A stretch of 64,000 nt of DNA from a virus. Numbering within the stretch: position 1 is the first letter of the stretch; every line of letters begins with the position of its first letter. Shown in pieces: positions 35,363 to 49,707 of this stretch. Made by a program: the position numbers and the translations under genes. The DNA lies in the IMG/VR virus record IMGVR_UViG_3300042691_015921. The stretch is one strand, 5' to 3'. The notes below the pieces were generated by a model. The model ran no database searches. It saw only the letters and a list, made by a program, of their open reading frames with translations, and was not told the origin of the DNA.

Positions 35363-35366
35363 CTCG

Positions 35367-36801: not shown

Positions 36802-36839
36802 CCTTTGTTGGAGTTACTGTCACCGTCACTTGTCCCCGG

Positions 36840-36945: not shown

Positions 36946-36977
36946 CTAGGGGAGAAGAGTTTTTTTTCGTGATTCTT

Positions 36978-37075
36978 TGGTATGCCGTTTGCTATATGCA
37001 AATCCCGTGCCGGAAATTAATTCTCGTTTGGCACGATTTTTGCGAGCGGCCCAAAGCGGCCGCTCCGCTGCGGCC
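36978..37075. repeat. regulatory island 1: three sigma54 motifs + conserved hairpin
   Basis: +36978, -36997, +37029 GG-N10-GC motifs; hairpin 37044-37065. Confidence 0.85.
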
Positions 37076-37149
37076 ACTTAATGGGGTTGTATTAGAGTGC
37101 TACCCATTTTGCAACTGTCGGCGGGCTGGGTAGCCCCACCATAATTATG

Positions 37150-37416
37150 TCAGTATGTAGGGAGTTCAGCAATAATCTGCTTGGCAAAAAGATGGTTTGG
37201 CTGTCCCAAAACGTCTGCTTCTTCAAGATCATCACCCTTGTAACATCCAATATTCATACTGTACGGAAGAATAACATCAAGCGATCCATTGTAGTCTAAG
37301 GCAGCATTGCTAGGACGCAACTGAATCACCAGTTGTTTACCGCCAGGAAAATTGATGATGAAATCGCAATCATGATCTGGTGCTTCTTGATGAATCTCAG
37401 TGAACTTATAGTTCAT
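37150..37416 (-). CDS. hypothetical protein
   Basis: RBS AAGGA. Confidence 0.7.
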   Translation of the reverse strand: MNYKFTEIHQEAPDHDCDFIINFPGGKQLVIQLRPSNAALDYNGSLDVILPYSMNIGCYKGDDLEEADVLGQPNHLFAKQIIAELPTY

Positions 37417-37450
37417 TTCTATTTCCTTAGATTAGAGGTAAAGCTGCCAA

Positions 37451-37523
37451 TGCCCCCACTAGGACTTGAACCTAGAACCTATCGGTTAAAAGCCGAATGC
37501 TCTGCCAATTGAGCTATAAGGGC
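37451..37523 (-). tRNA. tRNA-Lys(TTT)
   Basis: GCCCTTA/TGGGGGC stem, TAGCTCAATTGGCAGAGC D-arm, CT-TTT-AA, GGTTCAAGTCC. Confidence 0.93.
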
Positions 37524-37531
37524 AACTATTG

Positions 37532-37915
37532 TTAGTTTCTTTCCTCAAGAATGTAGACTTGCCGGTCTTGAGTTACCAGGGTGGCATATTCATATCCGTC
37601 CCAGATGAACTCCCCGTCATCACTATCCCGCCTCCAGTGAGGATCGACAATAGGATTATAGAACAAACGCTCCAGATTGTCAACCGGAATATTTTCAGTC
37701 ACGATCAATTCCGCACACTCAATCCATCCCGCCACATCCTTAACGCCTTCGGCGTGGACCTTCTTAGCCTTGTTCACCTTGTTAACCAGCTTGCACTCAA
37801 GCATTTCTAGGGAATACTGCTTGGGGTCAAGATACCTAACAGCACTATCCGGCCCACGAACTTGCCACTTCTTGAAGTTCTCACCGCTTTGAAGATGGAA
37901 GCGAACCTTATACAT
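37532..37915 (-). CDS. conserved hypothetical protein
   Basis: MYKVRFHL..G.NF.KWQV..YNP...PHW motif. Confidence 0.8.
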   Translation of the reverse strand: MYKVRFHLQSGENFKKWQVRGPDSAVRYLDPKQYSLEMLECKLVNKVNKAKKVHAEGVKDVAGWIECAELIVTENIPVDNLERLFYNPIVDPHWRRDSDDGEFIWDGYEYATLVTQDRQVYILEERN

Positions 37916-37934
37916 TTCTATCTCCTTTTCCACC

Positions 37935-37962
37935 ATTCTACCATACTTTTAGTGTATGTCAA
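37935..37962 (-). promoter_or_regulatory. sigma70 promoter TTGACA-N16-TAGAAT
   Basis: Consensus match abutting tRNA-Glu 3' end. Confidence 0.85.
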
Positions 37963-37963
37963 G

Positions 37964-38035
37964 TGACCCCACGGGGAATCGAACCCCGGTTAACGGATTG
38001 AAAGTCCGCTTTCCTAGCCGCTAGAAGATGGGGCC
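37964..38035 (-). tRNA. tRNA-Glu(TTC)
   Basis: GGCCCCA/TGGGGTC stem, GCGGA-CT-TTC-AA-TCCGT, GGTTCGATTCC. Confidence 0.93.
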
Positions 38036-38040
38036 AACTA

Positions 38041-38241
38041 TCACTGTGGCTCCGCAAGAATTGGTGCTTCGCTGTCGTAATCCATATAGTAAATAATCGC
38101 GTCTTCGATGAGAGGAATCAGACGCTCTCGCATCTTTTTCAATTCATCATTAGAAAGACTAGGGTAGTCCAGAGCCTCTACCCATGACTGAAAGAACGCA
38201 TAGTCAATCAGGATCGAAGAAGTTTGTGCAAAATTACTCAT
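38041..38241 (-). CDS. hypothetical protein
   Basis: Start trimmed to MSNFAQ. Confidence 0.65.
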   Translation of the reverse strand: MSNFAQTSSILIDYAFFQSWVEALDYPSLSNDELKKMRERLIPLIEDAIIYYMDYDSEAPILAEPQ

Positions 38242-38401
38242 CGTTGATTGCCTTTCGATTAGCGGAACCACGGGTTCGTTGACGCTTGGGACGGCTGTCG
38301 TGCAATCCACTCCCCGACCTGTGGGGGCTGTGACCCTTGCCCAATTCCCACACCGGGCGGATATTGAGTTGGATTGGTTCGTATTTGCGGGACTTGCTCA
38401 T
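38234..38401 (-). CDS. small basic protein
   Basis: GH..HRSGSGLHD.RPKRQRTR; overlaps tail of next ORF. Confidence 0.55.
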   Translation of the reverse strand: MSKSRKYEPIQLNIRPVWELGKGHSPHRSGSGLHDSRPKRQRTRGSANRKAINDE

Positions 38402-38609
38402 GCCATTTTCCATCGGGGTGAAGGTGATACAGTTTACCACTGTTTGGATTAAATGCAACTTGCCAAGTCATAATCGGCTGTGGCTGTGCATACGATTCCT
38501 GAACGATTACCTGGGGAGGAAGCATCGGCATCTGCTGATACTGCCTCCAACCATTATACGCCATTCCTACGATTGTCAAGCCAATTCCAATCCATTGGAT
38601 CATAGTCAA
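38259..38609 (-). CDS. membrane-anchored Pro/Gln-rich protein
   Basis: N-terminal TM; RBS AGGAG. Confidence 0.6.
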   Translation of the reverse strand: MTMIQWIGIGLTIVGMAYNGWRQYQQMPMLPPQVIVQESYAQPQPIMTWQVAFNPNSGKLYHLHPDGKWHEQVPQIRTNPTQYPPGVGIGQGSQPPQVGEWIARQPSQASTNPWFR

Positions 38610-38803
38610 CTCCTATTAAAACTAGCCCTCGCTCCAAGAACCATGCACAACCACATCGTCGCAAAGAAAGTCTTGATAGTGACCGGGATGCTAAGACCAA
38701 ACAGGAGATTCAGACTCCAGATGGTCAAAATCGGACCAAGGACAAGCATCACGATAAAGAAAAGAACCATCAGAAGAATAAGAAAGCCAGTTCCGTCAGT
38801 CAT
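38606..38803 (-). CDS. small membrane protein
   Basis: GPILTIWSLNLLFGLSIP. Confidence 0.7.
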   Translation of the reverse strand: MTDGTGFLILLMVLFFIVMLVLGPILTIWSLNLLFGLSIPVTIKTFFATMWLCMVLGARASFNRS

Positions 38804-39030
38804 TTGTTCCTCAAAGTCGGGAGATAGTAAAGATCGTACACTTCTTGCCAAGTCGGCATCTTGTGCCAGGGATCACCCTCATTCACACAGATACCATCAT
38901 TGTCATACACATCATAAAAGTCAACTGTTCTTGAATCAAATCCGTCAGAGTCATCATAGCAGGCGACCACATGAAAGATTCCAAGCGGCCAATTGCGGTC
39001 GTACAAATACGTCGCCACTTTCTCATTCAT
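38800..39030 (-). CDS. hypothetical protein
   Basis: FYDVY...C.NEGDP...PTW. Confidence 0.7.
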   Translation of the reverse strand: MNEKVATYLYDRNWPLGIFHVVACYDDSDGFDSRTVDFYDVYDNDGICVNEGDPWHKMPTWQEVYDLYYLPTLRNK

Positions 39031-39242
39031 CTTCTACTTCCTCGTAGTCCACATCGTGACAGTCACATTCCGTACAGATGTTATTGTCAAACGTGGTGTA
39101 GGTAGTCCCGTCAAGGTGTGCCCAGGCGTCGAAAACAACTTCGCCGCCACATTCCTTACATCTAGCCCACATGGTGTTTCTCCTTTACCCGCATGGTGGG
39201 GGCATGGCATTGTGCCACACCCCCACCACACAGTCAAGTCCC

Positions 39243-39461
39243 TCACGAACAGGACGGATCGACCATCCGGTCACACCGCAGGGTACGGACCTTGTTGTCC
39301 GCACTACGGATGCGGGCATAGGGACCGTTGGGGCCGAACCCGACGATCTCCACCACGCCGGCGTGGAACTTGAGGACGTTCCGACGACCGTGCTTGGGGT
39401 ACTTGCACACAAGACGCTGACCGGCCGAAATCGACAGGCCCGTGAAAACGTTCATTTTCAT
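39243..39461 (-). CDS. small SH3/WYL-like beta protein (paralog of 43258..43464)
   Basis: YPKHG..NVL...G...GPNG...VRTLRCDRM. Confidence 0.7.
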   Translation of the reverse strand: MKMNVFTGLSISAGQRLVCKYPKHGRRNVLKFHAGVVEIVGFGPNGPYARIRSADNKVRTLRCDRMVDPSCS

Positions 39462-39486
39462 TTTCCTTTGTGAAGTGGTACTAACT

Positions 39487-39522
39487 CTATCGACATTCTA
39501 CACAGAAAACTTTAGAAGTCAA
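39487..39522 (-). promoter_or_regulatory. nested sigma70 (TTGACT-N16-TAGAAT) / sigma28 (TAAAG-N15-GTCGATAG) promoter
   Basis: Both motifs on minus strand. Confidence 0.8.
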
Positions 39523-39803
39523 GCCTCAACGGGCTGGCTTGCTTCCTCGACAGTCTCGACAGCCTCGACCTTGACCTTCTTCTTCTTCGGAGGCTTGGGA
39601 TTGGCAAGGCTCACGCCCATACGCCGCTTCGCCCAAACCTTAAGACCCTGCGTACCAAGATCAGTGATATCGTCAATGTTCACGGCGTCGTAGGTGCGGC
39701 CATGCACACCACGGACAGCCTTAGAAAGACGCTGACGAACATCAATCACATCGACCTCATGACCATCCGACACAATCTCGACCGTAAACGTAAACTTCTG
39801 CAT
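39519..39803 (-). CDS. hypothetical protein
   Basis: RBS AAAGG. Confidence 0.7.
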   Translation of the reverse strand: MQKFTFTVEIVSDGHEVDVIDVRQRLSKAVRGVHGRTYDAVNIDDITDLGTQGLKVWAKRRMGVSLANPKPPKKKKVKVEAVETVEEASQPVEA

Positions 39804-39821
39804 TATTAAAACCTTTCAAGT

Positions 39822-40316
39822 TTAGAACCAATAGGGCCGACACCGACCCTTTTCCCATTTAGCGAACCTAACCTTGTCCCGCCTGTAGTAAGTCCTATAG
39901 GCTTCCACCGCATCAGGATTCCGGTATTCATCCGGCATGGCCTGTGCGAAATCCGTCATTGGGACGTTGGGGATATTATCCCACAAGGTTCCCATTCTGT
40001 CAATACCTTTCTCGCAAAAATGTTCCTTGCAAAACCTCAAGGAATATTCCTTGCAAAGTTCCTTCCCGTGGATATACGCCCAGGCAAAGTTAAGCTTGGA
40101 ATCGCCAACCCAACGGGTACAGGGGTGATTGTGATATCCGCCCGCGAGAGGCTTTCCAGCCTTTGTCAAGGGCATATCCTGATCCTGAACTCCATGACGA
40201 CGGAGAGCAGACCCCATTTGCTGGTAGAGTTCAACCACCATCTTGGGGACATGCTTATCACAGTAGAACTGTGCCGCAATCTTGGGATCGTTATCTAGGA
40301 CGAAGATATTCATCAT
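39822..40316 (-). CDS. pyrimidine-dimer DNA glycosylase (DenV)-related protein
   Basis: MNIFVLD..P..AAQ..CDKHV.KM..E..Q, YHNHPCT.W, FAQAMPDEY, AYR.YY. Confidence 0.8.
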   Translation of the reverse strand: MMNIFVLDNDPKIAAQFYCDKHVPKMVVELYQQMGSALRRHGVQDQDMPLTKAGKPLAGGYHNHPCTRWVGDSKLNFAWAYIHGKELCKEYSLRFCKEHFCEKGIDRMGTLWDNIPNVPMTDFAQAMPDEYRNPDAVEAYRTYYRRDKVRFAKWEKGRCRPYWF

Positions 40317-40333
40317 TTGCTCCTGTGTGACTT

Positions 40334-40361
40334 ATTCTACACTACTTATCGGCCGAGTCAA
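40334..40361 (-). promoter_or_regulatory. sigma70 promoter with perfect GCCGATAA in spacer
   Basis: TTGACT-CG-GCCGATAA-GTAGTG-TAGAAT. Confidence 0.8.
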
Positions 40362-40393
40362 GCATCTGGGATAAAAAAAAGAAGAATTTTCTT

Positions 40394-40440
40394 TGGCACG
40401 GTAATTGCGAGCGGCCCAAAGCGGCCGCTCCGCTGCGTCC
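40394..40440 (+). repeat. regulatory island 2: sigma54 motif + hairpin
   Basis: TGGCACGGTAATTGC-GAGCGGCC-CAAAGC-GGCCGCTC-CGCTGCG. Confidence 0.85.
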
Positions 40441-40475
40441 CTTACTATAAGGAAAGCAACGGTTTGGCCCTTTGG

Positions 40476-40718
40476 TCACTTGTAAGTGGTTACAGCCAGG
40501 GTGCAATCCACGATATGATCAATGGTTTCTTCACTCTTCCAATATCCAAACCTATTTTGGCTAAAACACCAAACATTATTAGGTACAATTTCGGACATAA
40601 GTTTGATGTAGACCAGATCATTCCATGTGAAAGTTTCACCAATATTAACAGCCCCAAAAGTAGTCTTAGAAGGACTTCTGACGTTATGCTTAACCGTGAT
40701 CATTCTTATCTTCTCCAA
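40476..40718 (-). CDS. hypothetical protein
   Basis: Tiled ORF. Confidence 0.65.
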   Translation of the reverse strand: MEKIRMITVKHNVRSPSKTTFGAVNIGETFTWNDLVYIKLMSEIVPNNVWCFSQNRFGYWKSEETIDHIVDCTLAVTTYK

Positions 40719-40923
40719 AAGTGCAACAATCGTAATCCAACAATTCGCTATTTACTTCAAGGATTTCCTTCGTCAATTCACTATCTGGCATTTGAGAAAT
40801 AGCCTCAGTCAGATAGTAGTGAAGCATATCCTCCATTTTTCGCATATCAAGACCATCAATGATATTTTCTACATACCTATTGATGATACATGCACGGTTG
40901 GAACTATTGATTTCAATCGCCAT
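40690..40923 (-). CDS. hypothetical protein
   Basis: Start MAIEIN, RBS GGAG. Confidence 0.7.
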   Translation of the reverse strand: MAIEINSSNRACIINRYVENIIDGLDMRKMEDMLHYYLTEAISQMPDSELTKEILEVNSELLDYDCCTFGEDKNDHG

Positions 40924-41164
40924 TATCTTCTCCGAAGATGTTATCCCAATGTTCCGGGTCAATCCCGCTCATGCACAGTTCACGATCATCGGCAGATAAA
41001 TAGGGAAAGCAATCCTGGGTAAGACCGCCATTCAACCACCTATTCATATCCGCCAAGTTGACGGTAACAGTAAACGGCTTTCCGTTAATACTCTCACCTT
41101 CCATCATCAGAATCTTCCCGTTCACGCTGACGGTTTTCTTACAATTCTCAAGGGCGTATCGCAT
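40913..41164 (-). CDS. conserved phage hypothetical protein
   Basis: W..G.L.QD.FPYLSADDRE...SGI.PE.W..F motif. Confidence 0.8.
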   Translation of the reverse strand: MRYALENCKKTVSVNGKILMMEGESINGKPFTVTVNLADMNRWLNGGLTQDCFPYLSADDRELCMSGIDPEHWDNIFGEDNGD

Positions 41165-41167
41165 AGT

Positions 41168-41398
41168 TCACTCCTTATTCCAGCCGGATTGTTCCATGAT
41201 ATCGTCAACTGAAAAGACTGCGGTCAGTTCATCGGCGGTTTTCTTAGTGCGGAATCCCCTCTCGTCAACAGTCATGAACCTGTCCAGTTCGTCATTATCA
41301 TTCGTCTCCCAGATAGCGGCACAAGCCGCCTCCATAGGAGTTTTGTTAGTAGAGTAGATTAGTTCCAGCGTCCCGCAGTTAATGTAATACTTAGGCAT
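41168..41398 (-). CDS. hypothetical protein
   Basis: MPKYYI..G..VDERGF; start trimmed. Confidence 0.7.
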   Translation of the reverse strand: MPKYYINCGTLELIYSTNKTPMEAACAAIWETNDNDELDRFMTVDERGFRTKKTADELTAVFSVDDIMEQSGWNKE

Positions 41399-41597
41399 TG
41401 TTAAACTCCGTGTGGTAGTATTCCATGTCTGTGTCGCAAACCACTTCCGCCTCCCCGTCAGCAAATCTTGCACCACAAACTGGTGTTCCATGCTTCTCAT
41501 AATAGCAAGGACTGACGTATTCCTCCGTTCCACAGGATGGGCAACACCATAGGTGTCGGATTTGCCGGTCATTAATTATAACCCAATTCTCATTCAT
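41391..41597 (-). CDS. small zinc-ribbon protein
   Basis: CCPSC...GTPVC...CD.DM.Y. Confidence 0.7.
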   Translation of the reverse strand: MNENWVIINDRQIRHLWCCPSCGTEEYVSPCYYEKHGTPVCGARFADGEAEVVCDTDMEYYHTEFNNA

Positions 41598-41916
41598 GGC
41601 ACGATCCTCAGATGATTAATGAGATAAATGATAATTTCAAGCAATTTCCATACACCTAGAGGAAAAACAACAAATACACTAAAAAAAGCCAGCAAAATCT
41701 GTAGATGAAAACTTGTTTCTGACATCATTTTGCCTTTACAGTAATGGTCTGTTCTTCAGTGTCAATCTCTAGGGTCACAATTTCATCATACCTAAAAAAC
41801 TTATCAGTCACTTGTTTAGCCTGCATTTCAATATCAGGCGGCAAATCCTGAAAAGCGTAGTATAAAGCGTCAGGGGTTTTCATCATCACTTCAATTTTCA
41901 TAATATTTTATGCCTT

Positions 41917-42621
41917 TCAATGGGAGGGGAATAAGACGTTGGCCAAACCCTTGACGCACATCCGGCAGGCGATATCGTTTTTCGCCCCCGTGCAAGTAAC
42001 TTCCGACCGTCCCCGGCGAATCTCCGGGCAAGTGACAAACTTTTCCCCATTCAGGATAACCAGTTTGGGGAGAGACTTCCGCCATGCATCAGCCTTTGCC
42101 TTGCCACGAGGCCGCTTGGGGGCAATCTTCTGGTCCGAATCGCACCATGCGAATCGCTTGAACCCTGCCGCCATAGCCAAACCCATATCTTCATGGTTAT
42201 GGATACTGGCATAGACCGCCATATACTTATCCAGACCGGCGAGAACGTCGTCGTAGATATGAGTATAGAACCACATGTCGGGGAGGTCAAGCCCATCGGC
42301 CAGAATACTTTCGCAAGCCTCAATGACGTTGGCAATGTAGTTGTGGTCGAGTTGACCGTTCAGGAACCAGTCACCCCGTTCATGCCACCGGATCGACTTG
42401 CCCCGCTTGCGGGCGTCCAGAATCATCGCCCGGATACGATTCTTCTCCGTAATGATATTCTGGAATCCGGCGGGACGGACGGCGGGATACTGCTTTTCCG
42501 ATTGTTCAGCATAACAGCCGTTGTTGAGATATGCACACGACGAGGGGCAAGTATCCCCCACGGGGCGAGACACCACAACGCAACCCTTGCCAAGTTTATC
42601 GTTCCCGTCAGCGATTTTCAT
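41917..42621 (-). CDS. Cys-cluster protein related to phage gp88 / radical-SAM-like proteins
   Basis: GN.KLG, TCPSSC....GCYA, IRWHE.GDW, YTH, TCP, C..C; start trimmed. Confidence 0.65.
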   Translation of the reverse strand: MKIADGNDKLGKGCVVVSRPVGDTCPSSCAYLNNGCYAEQSEKQYPAVRPAGFQNIITEKNRIRAMILDARKRGKSIRWHERGDWFLNGQLDHNYIANVIEACESILADGLDLPDMWFYTHIYDDVLAGLDKYMAVYASIHNHEDMGLAMAAGFKRFAWCDSDQKIAPKRPRGKAKADAWRKSLPKLVILNGEKFVTCPEIRRGRSEVTCTGAKNDIACRMCVKGLANVLFPSH

Positions 42622-42644
42622 CGTATCCTCCGTTTGATACTTGG

Positions 42645-42763
42645 ATTCTACACTACTTATCGACAATTGCAAGAGCGAATCTTAAACTTTTTTCTTTTAC
42701 CCGTCGTTCGCTTGTGTGCCCCGATTCTAGCATAGATATCGACACTTGCAAGCAGAATCTTTC
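42645..42763 (-). promoter_or_regulatory. two tandem sigma70/sigma28-like nested promoters
   Basis: TTGCAA-N16-TAGAAT at 42645 and 42724, both with GTCGATA; TTAAG/GAAAG 15-16 bp upstream. Confidence 0.75.
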
Positions 42764-42783
42764 CGGGGAATCTTATTTTCTTT

Positions 42784-42846
42784 TGGCACGATAATTGCGA
42801 GCGGCCCAAAGAGGCCGCTCCGTCGCGGCCCCTGCCATTTTGGCAG
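42784..42846 (+). repeat. regulatory island 3: sigma54 motif + hairpin + CTGCCATTTTGGCAG
   Basis: Direct reading. Confidence 0.85.
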
Positions 42847-43191
42847 GCAATCACTCCTCGTTCAGTACAATAGTGTCGATCCAGCAAGAGAAAGAATAGC
42901 CTTTCCGAGACATTTTCTCTTTCTCCATGCGGGCAATGGCTGTTTTGAGATTTTCATACGCCGCAATATTGAAGTAATAGCCTTCACCATGCTTAATGAT
43001 GGCATAGATATTCTTCATTTCACAACACCTTTCTTATGAGGCAAGCTAATCATGGCATAGATATCAACAATGATCGTTCCGGAGGGGAAGTAATTGTCGA
43101 TATCATGGGTCAAGATGCACGTTGCCATTGGGATACTATCATTGGTTTCTTTATAAACCACATAGTAACAGTTCATGATTTCACCTAGAAG

Positions 43192-43248
43192 AAAAAGGGT
43201 GAGCGGCCCCGCCCATTTGTCAAAGAACGGGTCTTATGGGCCGCTCAC
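43192..43248 (-). terminator. intrinsic terminator containing a boxA-like element
   Basis: GTGAGCGGCCC/GGGCCGCTCAC stem, T-run; GTTCTTTGACAAAT inside. Confidence 0.7.
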
Positions 43249-43257
43249 GCGGGGGGA

Positions 43258-43464
43258 TCAAAGGGACGCGATGCACTTCCGCAGGGAGAGGGAGCGAATC
43301 TCCCCGTTCTTCTGCTGGACCGTGATGCCCCGACCGTTGGGGCCGGTGAAGCTCCGGACCTTCACACCAACAACCCGACGAAGCACGTTCTTCGTGCCGT
43401 GGACGGGGTAAAGAACAGAAACCGTCCGACCATTGTTCCGCTTGTACAGGTTAGCCATTGTCAA
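43258..43464 (-). CDS. small SH3/WYL-like beta protein
   Basis: YPVHG..NVL...G...GPNG...IRSLSL. Confidence 0.7.
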   Translation of the reverse strand: MTMANLYKRNNGRTVSVLYPVHGTKNVLRRVVGVKVRSFTGPNGRGITVQQKNGEIRSLSLRKCIASL

Positions 43465-43602
43465 TCATCCTTTCGATCTGGGTAAAAGAGAAATACTGGA
43501 TACCACTCTCTCCGACCACTCCAACACGATCCTTGCGAATCGAAACCACCGTACCACTTGGGAGAACAGTCCCAAGTCCAACAATCGGCTTTTGCTCACT
43601 CA

Positions 43603-43923
43603 TCAGCTAACCCTTTCGGTAAAAACTTCCCTCACGGTCCCATCGGCGTAGAAAATCCTAATGTCTGGGCTAGTCCAGCCAAAGCCATTGGCAAGGTATT
43701 GGGCGTGTTCCTCAACGGAGTTGAAAACAATATTGCCATATTCCATCGGGTAGGACTCACCATCATTCCATGGATTATACCAGCGGTCGCCACCAAGGCT
43801 TTCGGCCTTTTGGACTGCCTCTTCCACGCTATCCGCCTCAATGAACATCAGATGGAAAACATTGTCGTCAGTGATGAAACTACCACCAACGTTAATCTGG
43901 TCGAACTGGAAAAACTTGCTCAT
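43603..43923 (-). CDS. conserved phage hypothetical protein
   Basis: F.F.Q.N.GG.F......IEADS.EEA...GDRW; RBS AAGGAG. Confidence 0.8.
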   Translation of the reverse strand: MSKFFQFDQINVGGSFITDDNVFHLMFIEADSVEEAVQKAESLGGDRWYNPWNDGESYPMEYGNIVFNSVEEHAQYLANGFGWTSPDIRIFYADGTVREVFTERVS

Positions 43924-43943
43924 TGTTTGCTCCTTATTCCATC

Positions 43944-43971
43944 ATCCTACCACACTACGCGTGAATGTCAA
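43944..43971 (-). promoter_or_regulatory. sigma70 promoter TTGACA-N16-TAGGAT
   Basis: Consensus match with upstream A/T tract. Confidence 0.8.
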
Positions 43972-44069
43972 GAGAAAAAAATAAGTTAGTGCCGTGCTAC
44001 GCTAAGTCACTTCTGCAAGCAGAAGGCTTCTCTTGCTTTACGATCACGGTCACTAACTATTTTTTAGCG

Positions 44070-44240
44070 TCAGTAGTTATCCTCGTCGTCGTCCCACGGA
44101 TCATCCGGGGCAAAATCCTCGTCGTCGTCGCCGGTCATGATATCATCATCATCCAAGAAATCCTCGTCAAAGCCGTCATACGTCGCGGCCTCAATCATAT
44201 CATCATCGTCTTCGTCGTACAGGGGGTCCGGGTGACTCAT
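44070..44240 (-). CDS. 56-aa hyper-acidic protein
   Basis: 28 of 56 residues D/E, no K/R; RBS AAGGAG. Confidence 0.7.
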   Translation of the reverse strand: MSHPDPLYDEDDDDMIEAATYDGFDEDFLDDDDIMTGDDDEDFAPDDPWDDDEDNY

Positions 44241-44256
44241 GACATTTCTCCTTTTA

Positions 44257-44460
44257 CTAGATTTGCCAATATCCGTCAACAAACAGGGCGAACCTCGGGG
44301 AAATCCACACCATACCAGCGTCCCCTACGTGCCCAAGATTGTATTTGACACTGGTAACGTCGGGGAAATACTTTCGGGCCATGTTCATCGCGTCGAGTCG
44401 GTCTTTACCGCAAACAGCACCGGCAAGAAACCCATCCACGAAGACTTCAAGTTTCATCAT
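44257..44460 (-). CDS. hypothetical protein
   Basis: RBS GGAG, promoters upstream. Confidence 0.7.
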   Translation of the reverse strand: MMKLEVFVDGFLAGAVCGKDRLDAMNMARKYFPDVTSVKYNLGHVGDAGMVWISPRFALFVDGYWQI

Positions 44461-44479
44461 TTCCGTCTCCCATTTCCTT

Positions 44480-44584
44480 ATTCTACCTTATCGGCAATCG
44501 AAGTCAAGGGGATTCAATCTTTTTTTTCTTTTCCCTACCCCGTTGGGTTGTGCGTTCATTCTACCATAGATATCGGCTTGTCAA
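44480..44584 (-). promoter_or_regulatory. two sigma70 promoters with GCCGATAA / GCCGATAT in spacers
   Basis: 44480-44507 and 44558-44584. Confidence 0.75.
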
Positions 44585-44615
44585 CTAGGAAAATCCACGA
44601 AAAAAAGATTTTCTT

Positions 44616-44727
44616 TGGCACGGGGTTTGCTAATGCAAGTCTTGTGCCGAACTTTCTTTTTCGTTTGGCATGGCTTTTGCGAGCCGCCCAAAGCGGCGGC
44701 TCCGTCGCGGCTCTGCCATTTTGGCAG
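44616..44727. repeat. regulatory island 4: three sigma54 motifs + covariant hairpin + palindrome
   Basis: +44616, -44634, +44666; GAGCCGCC-CAAAGC-GGCGGCTC 44681-44702; CTGCCATTTTGGCAG 44713-44727. Confidence 0.85.
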
Positions 44728-45001
44728 GTACTATGGTAATAACACGGCGGGGGAGTGTTACTGTCCTCCCCTGCCATGCTACTATTTACTTTTTCCCATC
44801 TCTTTCTTTTAGGAAGCAGTGTGAATGAGTAGTAAAAAGGCGGGTATAATCACTAGGTTTGCCTCCATACTTTTTAGCCCTCTCCTGTGCAGAAGGAGTT
44901 AGTACAATCTCTTGCTGGCAGATTCTACATTTCATATTGTTATTCCTTGTTCTTGGTTTATTTGTCGTTCACCTTACATCACCTCAGCGTACCACAATCG
45001 T

Positions 45002-45340
45002 TCACGCTGTCAAGCAATCGCGGTGGATCGCCACCCAATCCTTTGTCACCACCGCTCCGTCCACGAACGGAACGTGATTTTCGAAAAACCATTCGAAGTT
45101 CTTCTGGTAAATGCGGAAAGGACTGTACTTGTTGATCCTGTCCTTTGTGGTATGGGTTCTCCATCCACCGCTCCTGATGGTAGCGGAATCGTCTGGATGG
45201 ATCGTCACCACGGGGGTAGCATGGAGGATAATCGCCACACTTCCACAGGGGAGGATTTCCGCACGGGTATTGTTGCCGATTTTGCGGCGACTGGCGGAAG
45301 TCTTACCCTTGACCATCTTCACTGCGTCAATGTAATTCAT
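45002..45340 (-). CDS. conserved phage hypothetical protein
   Basis: KIGNNT..LH.T.VV..GGWRT.TTKDRIN..IYQKNF.WF. Confidence 0.8.
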   Translation of the reverse strand: MNYIDAVKMVKGKTSASRRKIGNNTRAEILPCGSVAIILHATPVVTIHPDDSATIRSGGWRTHTTKDRINKYSPFRIYQKNFEWFFENHVPFVDGAVVTKDWVAIHRDCLTA

Positions 45341-45534
45341 TCTGCCCTCACGAAAAAAGGATGATCGTCACAACTCATCTTCACCAGCCAATTCCGGCCC
45401 GATCCATCTTCCACGGAAATGCTATTGACCATTCCGGTCGCCTGCCTTCCCGAACAGAGTAGGATAGTAACTACCTTTCGGGTTTGCATGGCTTCACAAA
45501 GCCAAGTAAAAGAGTAAACGGGGGGTGCGGTCAT
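45337..45534 (-). CDS. hypothetical protein
   Basis: VNSISVEDGSGRNW. Confidence 0.7.
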   Translation of the reverse strand: MTAPPVYSFTWLCEAMQTRKVVTILLCSGRQATGMVNSISVEDGSGRNWLVKMSCDDHPFFVRAE

Positions 45535-45613
45535 ATTTCACCTTTTGTGGGATAGTGGGGGCGGGTTTTACCCCGCCCCACAGTGTACCAGTTATTCCCG
45601 ATTGTCAAGCTCC

Positions 45614-45763
45614 TCACCAAAGGTTTTTCATTGAGCAAAATGCCTTTGCGTTTTGACAGGCGAACTCTCCGTAGAAAACTGCCACGATTCGGTTTCCTAC
45701 GGCTGCGTGCAAGTCGATTACCGAGTACCCTTCCTCGCCGTGCCGAACGGTTTCGTATCGCAT
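45614..45763 (-). CDS. hypothetical protein
   Basis: Start MRYETV after AAGGAG; promoter 45786-45813. Confidence 0.65.
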   Translation of the reverse strand: MRYETVRHGEEGYSVIDLHAAVGNRIVAVFYGEFACQNAKAFCSMKNLW

Positions 45764-45809
45764 TTCCGCTCCTTTCGTTTTGTGGATTCTATCACACTTT
45801 CCAGCCCCG

Positions 45810-46124
45810 TCAAGGGGAGGGGGAAAACTTTCCCCCTGCCCCGGACGGTTGGAGGTTACGGGCAACTTCGATCCATTTGGCCACTTCTTCCGGGGTCTGC
45901 CGGGCCATTACGTCGTCATGCTCTTGGATACGGTAGAACTCACCATTGGGGAGAAGAATAGCTACTTCCGCCGTTGTGGATTCCCATTGAAGTTTTCCTC
46001 GCTGCGAACCATACTCTACGTTGTGATAATGGTCACAGTAGTTACCCGGCCCCCACTGGACGGAAATTGTGCAACCATTCTGGAACTTGATTTGGAAACC
46101 CTTGCCATCGGTGATCGAAAACAT
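45810..46124 (-). CDS. conserved phage hypothetical protein
   Basis: GFQI.F.NG.TISVQWG.GNYC..AEVAI. Confidence 0.8.
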   Translation of the reverse strand: MFSITDGKGFQIKFQNGCTISVQWGPGNYCDHYHNVEYGSQRGKLQWESTTAEVAILLPNGEFYRIQEHDDVMARQTPEEVAKWIEVARNLQPSGAGGKFSPSP

Positions 46125-46214
46125 GCCAGCTTTCCTTTACTTGGGGTGAATTGTGAACGGGGTTTTGTTTCATTGTCCCCGTCCTAAACGCCATAGGCGT
46201 CTCTTGCGATTATA

Positions 46215-46475
46215 CTAGGCGTTGTCCAGTTCGTCAAGCCTCTCCTGATCGGCAATCCAACGGTCTGCCCTAGATTCCGGGAAAATACCCGAAAAGCTGG
46301 TCTGCTGCACCCACCCCCGATTGTGACTGAATCTCTCCACCGCCACCGCATCGGGATTCAGCCAAACCTTACGATATCGCTTCCCGCGAGTCCCGCCGTC
46401 AAGCCACGCCTCATATTCGGCCCGGTCCTCATACGTCTGCAATTCCGCAAACTGTCCGAAAGTGAAGTTGTCCAT
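46215..46475 (-). CDS. hypothetical protein
   Basis: Promoter 46505-46532 upstream. Confidence 0.7.
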   Translation of the reverse strand: MDNFTFGQFAELQTYEDRAEYEAWLDGGTRGKRYRKVWLNPDAVAVERFSHNRGWVQQTSFSGIFPESRADRWIADQERLDELDNA

Positions 46476-46528
46476 TGTTTTTTCCCTTTACTGGTGATTC
46501 TGGGATTCTACCACACTTTTCGGTTTCG

Positions 46529-46744
46529 TCAAGCTATTTCTTTGTGTGCTTCCCACGCATCGGCAATATTCTTCGACCGGATGAAGTCCCTATATCCCAA
46601 TTCAATTCGAACAACATTATCGACGCTTGCGGGGTTTTCCACGAAAGCCGCCAATTCTTTCATGAGGCTTTTCGCTTCCGCCACCGCCTTGTTCATATAG
46701 ATACGGTGGCAACGATCCAACTTCTCGTTGATATCCATGTTCAA
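46529..46744 (-). CDS. hypothetical protein
   Basis: RBS GGAGG; promoters 46762-46789 and 46839-46866. Confidence 0.7.
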   Translation of the reverse strand: MNMDINEKLDRCHRIYMNKAVAEAKSLMKELAAFVENPASVDNVVRIELGYRDFIRSKNIADAWEAHKEIA

Positions 46745-46867
46745 CCTCCGGGGGTGTTTCTATCTTACACTATCGGAAATCGTTGTCAAGCGGTTTTCTT
46801 CGTCGTGCCGTTGAATCCTTCCCATGTGTTGTATCGGCATTTTACTCCCCCGACATGACTTTGCAAG

Positions 46868-47041
46868 CTTACAAAACTGTAAGGTTCCTAACGACATTGT
46901 AAGCTGTCATTTTGGCAGTTGGCATGGGATTTGCTAGCCGCCATATTGGCAGGGCGATTGGCACACGGTTTGCTGTGGCCTGCCATTTTGGCATTGGCAC
47001 GGCATTTGCGAGCGGCCCAAAGCGGCCGCTCCGCAGCGGCC
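46868..47041. repeat. regulatory island 5: CTTAC-N6-GTAAG, three alternating palindrome/sigma54 units, hairpin
   Basis: Palindromes 46904, 46938, 46980; sigma54 + at 46920, 46959, 46995; hairpin 47010-47031. Confidence 0.85.
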
Positions 47042-47135
47042 ATTAGCCTTTATTCTCCCGTGCCCTTTTTGGAGTTCCGCCGCGTCCATCCGGGGTTAGG
47101 GGGGCGGTTTCCCGCTCCCCCTGTCCCCTGGAAGT

Positions 47136-47336
47136 TTATCCTACGCGAGTCATGAAAACCCTTGCGATTCCGCAAGTCGAGATGCTCCATCCCTGCTCGT
47201 CCCAAATCCACGGAGGAAGCCCCTTCGCGTCGGGCGGGAAATACCCGTCAACGTGGATCATCCGATCATCCCCTTCCATCCGCTGGACGGCACAGCCATC
47301 CTCTTCAAGCCGCTTGATCATTTGTTCGACGGTCAT
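47136..47336 (-). CDS. hypothetical protein
   Basis: Start trimmed to MTVEQ; promoter 47357-47384. Confidence 0.65.
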   Translation of the reverse strand: MTVEQMIKRLEEDGCAVQRMEGDDRMIHVDGYFPPDAKGLPPWIWDEQGWSISTCGIARVFMTRVG

Positions 47337-47419
47337 GATTGAACCCTTCGGGTGAGAGTGTACCAGATTTTCCAGCCCCGGCAAGGGGAGGGGCGGTTTC
47401 CCGCCCCTCCCCGTTTGGG

Positions 47420-47935
47420 TCAGCCGATGATGTACTCCGAACCTTTCATCCGAATCGACCGGATGTTCTCCACCGCGAAATCCCGGAGCATGATAGCCTT
47501 TTCCGTTCCCTGCCGACCACTGTGGCGGGCGGGCGGAAGCCACTTCGCCACTTCCTCCGGGTCCACGGGGGAAAGGTCGGGCATGATGTAGGCGATAACG
47601 TCGCTCCGCTCCACCTTCGCTTCGATGTACCACTTATCCTTATGGTAGACGAGAGGCGTGCCCGCGATCCGCTCCCCCCACTTCCGGGGTTCCGCGATGA
47701 AATCGGCCACCATCCCCTCACGCTCCCGCTGCCGGTTGACGGCAGACTCATAATTGAAATTGAGAACCCCGTTGACCTTGCGGACAAGCCGCAGACCGGG
47801 GTACGGGTTGCCAGCCCGCAAACGCGGTTCCGTGGATGCCACGAAGGAAACCATCGTCGCACCTTTCACGGAGTGAAGCATGGCGATAAGATCGGACGCA
47901 GAGATACCGATACGATTCGCAATCGTCGCAGACAT
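47420..47935 (-). CDS. phage protein with possible Sm/SH3 (WYL_2-like) fold
   Basis: NPY....K.NG....NYE.AVN.QREREG, WG, HK.K.Y, RDFAVENIRSI. Confidence 0.75.
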   Translation of the reverse strand: MSATIANRIGISASDLIAMLHSVKGATMVSFVASTEPRLRAGNPYPGLRLVRKVNGVLNFNYESAVNRQREREGMVADFIAEPRKWGERIAGTPLVYHKDKWYIEAKVERSDVIAYIMPDLSPVDPEEVAKWLPPARHSGRQGTEKAIMLRDFAVENIRSIRMKGSEYIIG

Positions 47936-47983
47936 TGTGAAATCCTCTTGAGTGTCGCGGGTTTTCCTCCCCGCGATGGTGTC

Positions 47984-48024
47984 ATTCTACCATCTATCAT
48001 CGGCGTGTCAACACCCCGACTTGA
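47984..48024 (-). promoter_or_regulatory. nested sigma70 (TTGACA-N16-TAGAAT) / sigma28 (TCAAG-N15-GCCGATGA) promoter
   Basis: Direct reading. Confidence 0.8.
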
Positions 48025-48026
48025 AG

Positions 48027-48272
48027 CTTACGGGATTGTAAGGTTCTCCCTTTGGCACAGCATTTGCTAGCAGCGGTATTACTATTCCTTTACTATCGTG
48101 TTACTATTCTTTTACTATCTGTTACTGTCATTTTGGCAGGATAGTAAACGTGTGCAAGTCCCGTGCCATTTGCCCTGCCATTTTGACACTGCCATTTTGA
48201 CAGCACTGCAACTCCCGTGCCAAACCGACTGCCATTTTGACAGCCGCCCAAAGCGGCGGCTGCGTTGCGGCC
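48027..48272. repeat. regulatory island 6: sigma54 motifs, four TG(C/T)CA-TTT-TG(G/A)CA palindromes, phased TTACTAT repeats, covariant hairpin
   Basis: sigma54 +48053, -48153, -48207; palindromes 48125, 48175, 48189, 48229; hairpin CAGCCGCC-CAAAGC-GGCGGCTG 48241-48262. Confidence 0.85.
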
Positions 48273-48398
48273 ATAAGCGTGGTTTTCGCGGGTTGTGATC
48301 GCTCTAAAAGCCATAATCTCCCCTATTCCCTACTAGAAGTCCCGTCGCGTCCATCCGGGTCAGGGGGGCGGTTTCCCGCCCCCCATGCCCCGTGCGGA

Positions 48399-48569
48399 CT
48401 ACTTCTTCCCGTCCTCCAGGGTGCGGAGAACCTTGTCCCTCTTGATCTGGTATTTCAGATCCTTGAGGACATACAAAACCATTCCCGCCTCATGGGAGGT
48501 CAGTTGGCGGCGAGAGTTCGCCACCTCCGTCAGCAGACGGATCGCATCATCCACGGTCAGGGAGTCCAT
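48399..48569 (-). CDS. hypothetical protein
   Basis: Start MDSLTV after AAAGG. Confidence 0.65.
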   Translation of the reverse strand: MDSLTVDDAIRLLTEVANSRRQLTSHEAGMVLYVLKDLKYQIKRDKVLRTLEDGKK

Positions 48570-48651
48570 GATTGAACCTTTCGCGTGAAACGTGAAACCC
48601 TTTTCCCCGTCCGGGGAGGGGGGAAACGCTCCCCCCTCCCCATTGTGCGGG

Positions 48652-48930
48652 TCAAGCCCGCACGAACCTACCATTACTCGCCCGCATCATCTTCCGAACT
48701 ACGGGGTAGACTTGCTTGCCACCCTCGCAAACCTTGACGATATTACGGAGGGTGAATGTACGATACGGCCCACGAATGTCGTCAGCCGGAATGCCGTCAA
48801 TCTTGAACAACTGATAGGGTCCGTTCTTGCCCTGATGCACCGGGCCAATCCAGTGGCCCGAATAGGTGGTGACGATGCCATTCTTTACGTACCACACCTG
48901 CGTTTTGACATTTTCCACGATTGCGGACAC
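48652..48930 (-). CDS. small SH3/WYL-like protein
   Basis: GTG start (MSAIVENVK); GKNGPY...YRTFTLRNI. Confidence 0.7.
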   Translation of the reverse strand: MSAIVENVKTQVWYVKNGIVTTYSGHWIGPVHQGKNGPYQLFKIDGIPADDIRGPYRTFTLRNIVKVCEGGKQVYPVVRKMMRASNGRFVRA

Positions 48931-49031
48931 TGTAAAACCCTTTCGTATTGGGAAAACTCCCCACCTTCCCACCCCCTAACGCTAGGGGAGGGGAGGGTAG
49001 GGAGGGGGCTTTCGCCCCCTCCCGATCCCCG

Positions 49032-49379
49032 TCACCCGTAGAACGGGCTTTCCCGATCCTCTTCGGCCTTTTCCATCTGGGCCGAATAGGCCACGACCAG
49101 TGCTTCCAGCCGTTCCTCCGATCCGGGCTTCCCAACGGGAACGATCATGCCATCGTCCCAACCCTTGAACCGCTTGCTGACCTTGACCTTGACCTTCCGG
49201 GCCTTGGGAACCCGGCGGGTCACTTCCGTCCGAAGGTAGGGACCGTCGTCCGTCCAGACCATGCCCAGCGTAGTCTCCACGAACGGAATCCCTGCCGCCG
49301 CCGCTGCCGCAAACAATTCTTCGGGCTTGTGAACCTTGACCAATTCCGTGCCGGTGACGATGGAAAAGATGGCAGACAT
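49032..49379 (-). CDS. hypothetical protein, first gene of leftward early region
   Basis: MSAIFS..., GKPGSEER..AL...Y...ESPF; RBS AAGGGG. Confidence 0.75.
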   Translation of the reverse strand: MSAIFSIVTGTELVKVHKPEELFAAAAAAGIPFVETTLGMVWTDDGPYLRTEVTRRVPKARKVKVKVSKRFKGWDDGMIVPVGKPGSEERLEALVVAYSAQMEKAEEDRESPFYG

Positions 49380-49439
49380 TGTAGAACCCCTTGAAGTAGG
49401 AAACCGATCCGAGGGACGCCCCCCGTGCCGAATAGCATA

Positions 49440-49576
49440 TGCACTCCCCGTGCCGAAACAAAAAAAATCCTAAGTCTAATCGTGGTAAGGGTTTACGATT
49501 TATGCCATTATGGCAGATTTCACAAAAACAGTGAGACGTTCACAAAAATTGTGAATCGCCTCCCAAAAATTGTGAA
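49440..49576 (-). promoter_or_regulatory. candidate sigma54 promoter with IHF-like site and upstream palindromes
   Basis: CGGCACGGGGAGTGCA 49440-49455; TAAGGGTTTA 49486-49495; TGCCATTATGGCA 49503-49515; TTCACAA-N3-TTGTGAA x3 49519-49576. Confidence 0.6.
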
Positions 49577-49707
49577 TCGCTCACCGATACGGGGAACGTG
49601 CATGGCGGGGGGTTTTCCGTTCAATCGGCAGGAGTCTGGCGAGATCGTCGCGGGCCGGGGGGGTTTTTCCGCAATATCCCTCTAGCTTAGTTAATGTATT
49701 GCCTCTA

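Follow-up and report, generated by a model that had tools for sequence, protein, structure and literature searches.

What occupies the gaps between the early genes of an uncultured freshwater (lake) phage, where sequences resembling promoters of a host alternative sigma factor recur far more often than chance would allow? The window considered here is the whole 64,000-nt stretch of DNA that was analyzed, part of a 130,685-bp record. Genes in the region of interest are encoded on the minus strand (PHROG and Pfam matches), and between 36.8 and 49.7 kb seven gene-free islands hold 15 -24/-12 boxes of the TGGCAC-N5-TTGC type, with about 0.2 expected. A sequence-only reading of this DNA had reported 15 such motifs, and we recovered all of them; its plus-strand starts stand, and its minus-strand starts shift to one base later. 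Relative to the genes, 5 boxes are sense and 10 antisense:

36978..36992, plus strand: box, antisense, opposing box 36998
36998..37012, minus strand: box, sense, its -12 element 5 bp away from that of 36978
37029..37043, plus strand: box, antisense, abutting a hairpin
40394..40408, plus strand: box, antisense, abutting a hairpin; -35 hexamer of the divergent promoter 32 nt away
42784..42798, plus strand: box, antisense, abutting a hairpin; -35 hexamer 32 nt away
44616..44630, plus strand: box, antisense, opposing box 44635
44635..44649, minus strand: box, sense, its -12 element 4 bp away from that of 44616
44666..44680, plus strand: box, antisense, abutting a hairpin
46920..46934, plus strand: box, antisense, member 1 of a tandem trio
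46959..46973, plus strand: box, antisense; strain variants alter three bases, in the spacer only
46995..47009, plus strand: box, antisense, abutting a hairpin; strain variant C to T at the Y position
48053..48067, plus strand: box, antisense; -35 hexamer 41 nt away
48154..48168, minus strand: box, sense
48208..48222, minus strand: box, sense
49441..49455, minus strand: box, sense, weaker (CGGCAC ... GTGC); the sole recognizable promoter ahead of ORF 49032-49379

Applied to the window, the pattern of the sequence-only reading gives 17 matches where 0.46 are expected (100 shuffles, maximum 3). The two additional matches, at 29532 and 39933, are weaker and lie within coding sequence. Because the region with boxes has a GC content of about 50% in a genome of 35%, a local control was also run: positions 35000-50300 contain 16 matches versus 0.19 expected (first-order Markov, maximum 2), or 11 versus 0.04 for the strict form TGGCAY-N5-TTGC, and the islands themselves (2,267 nt in total) contain 15 versus 0.04. 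Beyond the window the record has a single further match, within an ORF; in all, the other 115 kb of the phage yields only three weaker matches, every one in coding sequence, and no boxes were found in the non-coding DNA of the 130-kb record outside the islands. The window and related phages alike have GG and GC at an invariant distance of 10 nt around a spacer that carries no information, with secondary preferences for T at -27, R at -20, T at -15, and W after the GC. These features match the published sigma-54 consensus, TGGCAC-N5-TTGCW (PMC12316311), and uphold the proposed sigma-54 identity of the motif. The best explanation is that the boxes are genuine recognition sites for host sigma-54 (RpoN) RNA polymerase kept by selection, although binding itself is something we infer.

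The boxes sit within modules of 160-460 bp whose elements keep one order when read with the leftward genes: one or more hairpins, one or more sigma-54 boxes, an A/T tract, and a strong sigma-70 promoter. Islands had been noticed before, with a count of six; we count seven, the last at 49.4-49.7 kb. Listed along the direction of the genes, they are:

36802..37149, minus strand: island 1; hairpin, antisense box, face-to-face pair, A tract, two sigma-70 promoters; downstream gene 35899-36801, minus strand, DUF932
40317..40475, minus strand: island 2; hairpin, antisense box, A tract, sigma-70 promoter; downstream gene 39822-40316, minus strand, phrog_624
42673..42850, minus strand: island 3; palindrome, hairpin, antisense box, two sigma-70 promoters; downstream gene 41917-42672, minus strand, GP88/DUF7227
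44461..44795, minus strand: island 4; GC hairpin, palindrome, 22-nt hairpin, antisense box, face-to-face pair, A tract, sigma-70 promoter
46745..47135, minus strand: island 5; GC hairpin (GAAA loop, gene strand), 22-nt hairpin, tandem trio of antisense boxes with a palindrome before each, CTTAC/GTAAG inverted repeat, sigma-70 promoters
47936..48398, minus strand: island 6; GC hairpin, 22-nt hairpin that no box abuts, palindromes interleaved with two sense boxes, TTACTAT repeated five times (11-bp period), a single antisense box, inverted repeat, sigma-70 promoter
49380..49707, minus strand: island 7; TTCACAA/TTGTGAA repeats in symmetric arrangement plus a single palindrome, located at about -75 to -150, then a sense box with ORF 49032-49379 beginning about 60 nt downstream

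Leftward sigma-70-like promoters are enriched (46 versus 15.8); no good one was found for island 7. Many of the island promoters carry CGATA in the spacer. About ten other sigma-70-like promoters in the block (score at least 10/12) have no box nearby, the boxes belonging to the hairpin-bearing islands. The island promoters, given from -35 start to -10 end, are:

36945-36918, 36867-36840, 40361-40334, 42751-42724, and 42672-42645, minus strand: sigma-70-type promoters 1-5
44507-44480, 46866-46839, 46789-46762, and 48011-47984, minus strand: sigma-70-type promoters 6-9

The conserved hairpin is likewise real, with six 22-nt copies that are 100% paired and two compensatory G:C to C:G swaps, and the box-plus-hairpin unit is near-identical across five islands. 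It is not an obligate part of a sigma-54 unit, since 10 of the 15 boxes lack it and the island 6 copy stands apart from any box. In five boxes a GC-rich palindrome fills the region to be melted, centered on the predicted start site. The second repeated element, TGCCA-N3-TGGCA, occurs in four strict and nine relaxed copies, all confined to islands. Its proposed role as an enhancer is not supported: copies are found at 0-6 bp from a -24 element or else on the downstream side of the hairpin, and relative L028 carries the palindrome twice in a record devoid of sigma-54 boxes. It is probably an operator for some other protein. These elements, with no strand assigned, are:

37044..37065: hairpin copy 1, a 22-nt GC palindrome with an 8-bp stem and CAAAGC loop
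40409..40430: hairpin copy 2
42799..42820: hairpin copy 3
44681..44702: hairpin copy 4; one compensatory swap, G:C to C:G
47010..47031: hairpin copy 5
48241..48262: hairpin copy 6; two compensatory swaps, no sigma-54 box directly beside it
42833..49515: nine palindromes of the form TGYCA-W3-TGRCA, with starts at 42833, 44714, 46905, 46981, 48126, 48176, 48190, 48230, and 49503

The boxes are conserved in the related lake phages examined, where they hold the same module position with different spacers and flanks. The complete relative G003 has five strict boxes, all located in an early block of 13 kb and all opposite in strand to the genes; G004 has three strict boxes, G001 two, and G002 one. 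Each of the relatives' boxes has hairpins on one side and the A/T tract belonging to a consensus sigma-70 promoter on the other, with flanks and hairpins unlike those of the window. In L036 the order is again hairpins, box, A tract, and promoter, with the boxes in sense orientation 31-42 nt upstream of the sigma-70 promoters; boxes can change orientation with module order intact. Orientation is near-uniform within a lineage (the window's close relatives have antisense boxes, L036 sense ones), so transcript direction could matter, or duplicated cassettes could share a common descent. Every one of the listed strain variants inside boxes affects either a base of the spacer or the Y position; one insertion of 18 nt contributes a further palindrome, and module copy number differs among strains. 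Contigs of other strains and lake samples join island to island, which identifies the islands as mobile cassette boundaries. Relatives have only one to six boxes and many sigma-70 promoters have none, so not every cassette requires a box.

The factors that read these sites would come from the cell. Neither PF00158 nor PF04552 was found in the phage, nor PF00158 in two complete relatives. No gene for sigma-54 or a bEBP was found in these three genomes (the sequence-only reading had noted the same for the window), so that whatever reads the boxes must come from the host. The phage, with small early genes separated by cassettes, probably infects Planctomycetes; the phylum, Planctomycetota, is inferred from one gene family only, a DUF1559 pilin-like gene whose top match is in a Planctomycetales MAG with rpoN and at least 12 bEBPs. 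Sigma-54 and its activators are both present in the likely host phylum, and in many of its genomes the strict motif is several-fold over its control.

To our knowledge, sigma-54 holoenzyme is the sole bacterial holoenzyme that forms a stable closed complex on DNA without an activator. We tentatively propose, as a plausible account somewhat short of probable, that cassette boundaries are places where the boxes keep the sigma-54 polymerase of the host parked and, for the most part, not firing. Most boxes would act by occupancy rather than as ordinary gene promoters, with holoenzyme held at the upstream edge of each early-promoter cassette, mostly back-to-back with the sigma-70 promoter and facing the end of the preceding cassette. 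Most sites would seldom fire because a GC-rich palindrome or inverted second box occupies the region to be melted, and because enhancer sites at the usual distance and a phage activator gene are both lacking. The geometry agrees with earlier remarks that sites point against the genes or are packed too tightly: 10 of 15 aim into the 3′ end of the preceding cassette, face-to-face pairs have -12 elements separated by 4-5 bp, and tandem boxes start 36-39 bp apart, overlaps that prevent holoenzyme from using such sites simultaneously as promoters. The proposal also draws on generality: tandem boxes occur in at least 120 viral stretches, many of them multi-box arrays in both orientations, and 301 genomes of the host phylum gave just 6 tandem-box matches, most resembling coding repeats by eye. 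Counting against it are the near-uniform orientation within lineages, the small number of boxes in relatives, and the many sigma-70 promoters that lack one.

A less likely competitor is that the boxes are real enhancer-dependent promoters, fired by a host bEBP (possibly one that lacks a DNA-binding domain and works from solution) or by an unrecognized phage activator. Sense boxes would then provide host-state-dependent early expression, in tandem with sigma-70 promoters in a glnA-like manner, and antisense boxes would yield short structured or antisense RNAs, or convergent collisions ending or silencing the preceding cassette. The good consensus fit, the sense boxes of L036, and the many bEBPs in the candidate host phylum all suit this account, as does an inverted repeat in relatives that begins near the predicted +1; in 7 of 10 islands the strand predicted to be transcribed from the box folds more stably than the gene strand. 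The 49441 box, with its upstream repeats and no sigma-70 promoter near, resembles a normal promoter and counts against occupancy; it may be the conventional activator-dependent promoter of the first cassette. Among the 120 other viral stretches listed with tandem boxes, co-oriented boxes more often point toward a near same-strand ORF (39 cases) than toward one on the opposite strand (23), by crude ORF calling. Against firing stand the direction of most boxes, the paired and tandem arrangements that make poor promoters, the palindromes in five melting regions, the lack of enhancer-like sites at the usual distance outside island 7, the missing phage activator, and hairpins whose place follows gene direction rather than box orientation.

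We consider it doubtful that the boxes act mainly in trans as a sponge, in which some 15 high-affinity sites per genome, multiplied through replication, would titrate sigma-54 or its holoenzyme, turning off host genes under sigma-54 control, whether for stress, proteostasis, or surface functions, or moving core polymerase to sigma-70. The density, about one strict box per 1.2 kb across a 13-kb block versus tens per several Mb in the candidate host phylum, is suggestive, as are overlapping sites in both orientations, strain-variable copy number, dense arrays across many unrelated viral contigs, and independence from an activator. A sponge does not account for the fixed place of boxes beside early promoters and hairpins or their absence from other non-coding DNA, and the one to six boxes of relatives are too few for early-infection titration. 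The functional analogy would be 6S RNA, a cell-made RNA mimic of an open promoter that serves as a sponge for sigma-70 holoenzyme; both would be nucleic-acid decoys keeping a specific holoenzyme unproductive, the phage candidate differing as double-stranded DNA directed at sigma-54. Genome-entry handholds, also suggested previously, find no support, the islands of G003 lying 29-42 kb from the terminal repeats. The earlier observation is confirmed and its interpretation partly supported; by sequence alone, sponge, roadblock or antisense promoter, and other readings look alike.

It is quite unlikely that another protein, such as an unrecognized phage early protein, binds boxes that merely resemble sigma-54 promoters: most early ORFs have no known family and further repeated operators show that DNA-binding proteins of other kinds act in the islands, but the secondary preferences, exact 10-nt GG-GC spacing, and free spacer all match sigma-54, the motif is found again in relatives whose early genes differ, as well as in many unrelated viral contigs, and the phage encodes no sigma-54-like DNA-binding domain. 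Very unlikely is functionless hitchhiking in a repeat spread by recombination between cassettes, for which the paralogous, recombining islands and the near-identical box-plus-hairpin units speak, since spacers vary among copies around a constant GG and GC and boxes persist in relatives with sequence-unrelated flanks.

Compared with bacterial sigma-54 promoters such as glnAp2, nifH, and pspA (PMC12316311), the boxes share bipartite sequence, spacing, secondary preferences, and, presumably, dependence on cellular factor and activators, but they are phage-borne, clustered about 100 times more densely than in candidate host phylum genomes, mostly directed away from genes, sometimes face-to-face or tightly tandem, devoid of enhancer sites at the usual distance (island 7 perhaps excepted), and in five cases coupled to a GC palindrome centered on the predicted start. 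Non-canonical intragenic or antisense sites in E. coli and Salmonella bind inactive holoenzyme with no obvious target gene, as proposed here, with decoy, antisense, and interference roles discussed (PMC4591121, PMC3844500); those sites are dispersed, mostly intragenic, and often weaker, whereas the phage boxes are consensus-grade, strictly intergenic, and modular. At the E. coli intragenic sites the overlapping gene was not measurably affected, which the authors took to exclude roadblock repression (PMC4591121); these data argue against simple roadblocking by intragenic sigma-54 complexes.

The closest architectural parallel is the promoter-early stem-loop (PeSL) of T4-type phages, a terminator/stem-loop and early promoter repeated between small variable early genes (PMC2839356, PMC4122927). 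Like PeSLs, the islands are small composite repeated motifs and points of genetic exchange; unlike them, they are larger (160-460 bp), belong to a phage not assigned as T4-type, and include sigma-54 boxes and palindromic operators, which are not described for PeSLs. We found no published description of sigma-54 boxes inside phage early terminator-promoter modules. Under the parked-polymerase proposal, the box would be one building block of composite, mobile terminator-promoter cassettes between early genes; the parked complex may mark or insulate the cassette boundary, and sigma-54 would be soaked up as a side effect as phage genomes multiply.

The -24/-12 pattern of the sequence-only reading matches the window 17 times against 0.46 expected, which confirms the dense motifs reported at 15 sites. 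All 15 are intergenic, as had been claimed; two additional, weaker matches (29532 and 39933) lie within coding sequence. Because the region is GC-rich, we retested the enrichment against a local control, with expectations taken from Markov simulations, and it persisted: there are 16 matches versus 0.19 expected in 35000-50300, 11 versus 0.04 for the strict form TGGCAY-N5-TTGC in the same local test, and 15 versus 0.04 in the 2,267 nt of gene-free islands that hold the reported sites, with one further match, within an ORF, in the remainder of the genome. All 15 putative sigma-54 sites (hereafter boxes, named by start coordinate) carry GG and GC 10 nt apart within a TGGCAC-N5-TTGCW consensus, 11 of them in strict form. 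Across relatives, the box profile has an uninformative spacer and favours T at -27, R at -20 and T at -15, which is the profile of sigma-54 (consensus in PMC12316311).

The islands themselves were confirmed, in a number of seven rather than six (numbered here by increasing coordinate). Read along the gene strand, each island leads in the same order from the end of the previous gene through a GC-rich hairpin and/or a palindrome, a conserved 22-nt hairpin, one to three boxes, an A/T tract resembling an UP element, and one or two sigma-70 promoters to the next gene. On the gene strand, the loop of the GC-rich hairpin in islands 5 and 6 is GAAA, and CGATA is frequent in the spacer of the sigma-70 promoters. 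The same motif (often GCCGATA) is found in the spacer of many early sigma-70 promoters of this phage and its relatives, in this phage at 36840-48011, 231 and 30159 on the minus strand.

Ten of the 15 boxes run against the genes (antisense) and five along them (sense). Face-to-face pairs, with -12 elements 4-5 bp apart, occur in two islands, and the three tandem boxes of island 5 start 36-39 bp apart, all of which bears out the earlier remark that most sites point away from genes or are packed too tightly. Only box 49441 lies directly before an ORF, the four remaining sense boxes being placed upstream of sigma-70 promoters. This exceptional box is in sense orientation with an ORF 60 nt downstream and no sigma-70 promoter nearby, and is the sole box with symmetric repeats at about -75 to -150. 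The DNA upstream of it at 49503-49582 contains a symmetric set of four TTCACAA/TTGTGAA half-sites and one TGCCATTATGGCA palindrome, an arrangement that could be an enhancer or operator heading the leftward arm.

Both the TGCCA-N3-TGGCA palindromes and the conserved hairpin described from the sequence are present, the former in four strict and nine relaxed copies and the latter in six copies that are 100% paired, with two compensatory swaps (reached by 8 of 500 shuffles). The hairpin abuts the GC of a box in five islands, which places the centre of the dyad at the predicted start site. However, the hairpin of island 6 is retained with its loop although no box adjoins it, and no hairpin accompanies ten of the boxes; the two elements are therefore separable, and we set aside the hairpin as a specialised start-site feature of the boxes. 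Folding energies of both strands gave mixed results as to which strand carries the hairpins as RNA, and the six window hairpins give no strand information because they consist of Watson-Crick pairs only. About ten other good sigma-70-like promoters in the same block have no box nearby, which indicates that boxes go with hairpin-bearing boundaries and not with promoters as such. The distance from box to -35 hexamer is 21-87 nt, mostly 32-42; a claim of helical phasing between the two would need more cases, and more independent ones. The palindromes had been taken for enhancers, but they abut boxes and also occur without them (the viral contig stretch L028 has two CTGCCA-N3-TGGCAG palindromes and no box in the record), so they are more likely operators for some protein. 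Between the boxes of island 6, at 48079-48128, are five TTACTAT/TTACTGT direct repeats with an 11-bp period, or one per helical turn, which are suggestive of iterons or of arrayed sites for a protein that contacts the helix from one face.

The window corresponds to bases 52383-116382 of an IMG/VR virus record that is 130,685 bp long and about 86% complete. The islands belong to a block of distinctive composition: the genome has a GC content of about 35%, versus about 50% in 35000-50000. The 15 kb of this GC-rich block are the exact extent of the sigma-54-bearing early region, and the block may have been exchanged with higher-GC relatives, whose loci have 41-46% GC. Small genes run leftward from about 50.2 kb, and a rightward module including the large terminase begins at 50.36 kb. 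The real genes of the block are its minus-strand ORFs, with family matches to DUF932/phrog_1221, phrog_624, GP88/DUF7227, DUF7296, Kyano_Gp96, DUF7326 and an HNH endonuclease. Leftward sigma-70-like promoters number 46 here versus 15.8 expected; the block thus behaves like an early, hyperplastic region, and we infer that it is one. About 35 early ORFs were searched against Pfam and PHROG, and none came out as a DNA-binding regulator, a sigma factor or an AAA+ activator; an Rfam search of the islands at permissive thresholds returned the two tRNAs and chance-level matches only.

Individual genes of the window (coordinates, strand, description)
316-1326, minus strand: gene with DUF1559 and an N-terminal methylation (pilin-like) motif
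44796-44936, minus strand: 46-codon ORF with a CxxC motif noted by eye, between island 4 and the Kyano_Gp96-like gene and under the ORF length cut-off used; we guess at a Zn-ribbon
49708-50250, minus strand: HNH endonuclease gene, within the divergent control region that separates the leftward early arm from the rightward large-terminase arm
54930-58019, plus strand: large terminase ORF, unusually long at 1029 aa, aligning to other terminases over residues ~6-790 only; it may carry an insertion or fused domain

Auxiliary sugar-metabolism genes, for UDP-galactopyranose mutase and GDP-mannose 4,6-dehydratase, are also present at 31099-32190 (minus strand) and 52300-53364 (plus strand).

Comparison of the block with contigs of four lake runs bore on both selection and mobility. 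Among the best-supported strain differences, those falling inside boxes are three spacer bases in box 46959 and, in box 46995, T in place of C at the Y position, which is supportive evidence, if not exhaustive. An 18-nt insertion in strains brings another palindrome. In addition, contigs join one island directly to another (40432 to 43947, 42830 to 47099, 44584 to 37029, 48224 to 42830 and 42847 to 37058), skipping 0.4-4.3 kb, from which it follows that early-gene cassettes are gained, lost or swapped at islands. Cassette swapping at the element is likewise a property of the promoter-early stem-loops (PeSLs) of T4-type phages (PMC2839356; PMC4122927), which the islands also resemble in make-up: they repeat a composite of stem-loop and early sigma-70 promoter between small early ORFs (all seven have hairpins, and six of the seven also a promoter scoring 9-11 of 12). 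The sole result bearing on membership of the T4-type group is the large terminase, which is about 24-25% identical to jumbo myovirus terminases.

Conservation of the islands in related phages had been proposed as a check, and for the boxes and their layout it came out positive. Among homologues of two flanking genes fetched from viral contigs, the closest relatives have the same layout of consensus sigma-70 promoter, A/T tract and divergent TTGGCAC-N5-TTGC box, with hairpins and repeats past the box that differ from those of the window. In the complete 148-kb relative G003 the strict boxes number five, all within an early block of 13 kb and all antisense to the genes; four other relative genomes have three (G004), two (G001), one (G002) and none (G005). 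The contig stretch L036 carries its boxes in sense orientation, with the order of hairpins, box, A tract and promoter unchanged. An exact search of viral contigs for the box-plus-hairpin unit and a megablast of the 14-kb block against isolated phages gave no match, so the hairpin unit seems limited to this phage and its strains.

Two arrangements in relatives deserve separate mention. High-GC relatives (L008-L016 and L029, 61-65% GC) are without boxes; a CCGAACAATCAGCC-like motif, accompanied by a GGCACGGCC...GGCCGTGCC hairpin, recurs upstream of their DUF932 homologue and of its upstream neighbour, and may represent another promoter system serving another host. In G003, at the head of its early block (about 29.4 kb; contig stretch L110, 3417-3605), two boxes about 145 bp apart are arranged back-to-back, and GCCAATGAGCAG direct repeats fill part of the gap, a layout that resembles divergent sigma-54 promoters sharing one enhancer.

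Box clusters extend well beyond these relatives. Pairs of strict boxes spaced 5-35 nt apart were found in at least 120 viral stretches, and among the matches listed are many arrays of 4-16 boxes, some repeating in tandem every 27 bp or so, others alternating in face-to-face pairs.

Box arrays in unrelated viral contigs
L121, L125, L129, L137, L150, L160, L171, L172, L192: 4-16 consensus boxes

In L125, four identical units lie directly upstream of a gene; over the 120 viral stretches listed, tandem boxes show a modest sense bias relative to neighbouring ORFs (39 versus 23, with crude ORF calls). In the candidate host phylum, 301 genomes yielded 6 matches to the two-box pattern, most of them resembling coding repeats by eye. 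Given that the viral count is a lower bound and that the collections differ in size, our claim goes no further than that arrays are frequent among viral contigs and rare in the phylum. In the literature that we searched, sigma-54 box clusters in phage genomes are not described.

Any sigma-54 acting at the boxes would have to come from the host. Searches of the phage for a sigma-54 DNA-binding domain and for the AAA+ domain of enhancer-binding proteins (bEBPs) found neither, and the bEBP AAA+ domain was not found in two complete relatives, in agreement with the earlier statement that the window has no sigma-54 or bEBP gene. The phage DNA is present in about 14 freshwater studies, with no RNA run among the public runs listed with the phage. 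The DUF1559 gene, whose pilin-like N-methyl family is a hallmark of Planctomycetes, has its best genome match, at 33% identity, in a Planctomycetales MAG, and this one gene is the pointer to a Planctomycetota host, or one from the wider PVC group. In that MAG, rpoN occurs once and bEBPs number at least 12. Across a 61-genome sample of the phylum, the strict motif is several-fold more frequent than its reversed control in many genomes (for example 58/6, 63/7 and 40/1), an excess indicating that canonical sigma-54 promoters are in use there.

Overall, the observation made from the sequence stands, and its interpretation is supported in part. It is likely that the boxes are sigma-54 recognition elements kept by selection and built into PeSL-like mobile cassettes; their mechanism is much less certain. 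The reading that we favour is occupancy, in which a non-firing sigma-54 closed complex would be parked at the box; to our knowledge, sitting on DNA without firing is unique to sigma-54 RNA polymerase. We favour it because the order of elements is fixed relative to the genes and box orientation can flip between lineages, because overlapping boxes cannot all be promoters, because GC palindromes occupy the region that would need to melt, because searches found no phage activator gene and, save perhaps at box 49441, no enhancer-like sites at the usual distance, and because boxes associate with terminator-promoter boundaries. Against it, intragenic sigma-54 sites in E. coli do not act as roadblocks (PMC4591121). 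The uniform orientation of boxes within a lineage and the likeness of box 49441 to a normal promoter also count against occupancy. A live alternative is that the boxes are genuine promoters, including for antisense transcription into the previous cassette. Also live is the possibility that the boxes serve as a trans-acting sponge for sigma-54. The suggestion that islands give RNA polymerase handholds during genome entry we reject, the islands of the complete relative G003 being 29-42 kb from the terminal repeats.

As an element, the sigma-54 promoter box is known; its setting here is new, and it is part of a wider phenomenon that appears undescribed. More tentatively, and with the balance tipping somewhat against it, many phage lineages might carry purpose-built capture sites for non-firing host sigma-54 polymerase, either acting in cis as a dock or boundary of mobile early-gene cassettes or serving as a decoy that would shut off the sigma-54 regulon of the host, which would be a so far undescribed phage-host transcription strategy. 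Textbook treatments of phage use of host transcription deal chiefly with sigma-70 and with sigma factors or polymerases that the phage makes; phage papers mention sigma-54 mostly in connection with the phage-shock response. The motif being universal, standard sigma-54 biochemistry is applicable to this reading, and the islands may offer synthetic biology small natural parts for use as insulators or docks. As only rpoN-bearing hosts would qualify, boxes could help to predict hosts. If the finding is true, either early development would be tied to physiological signals of the host through host enhancer-binding proteins, or the silent closed complex would be used as a structural or titrating device; either would be an added layer of phage takeover.
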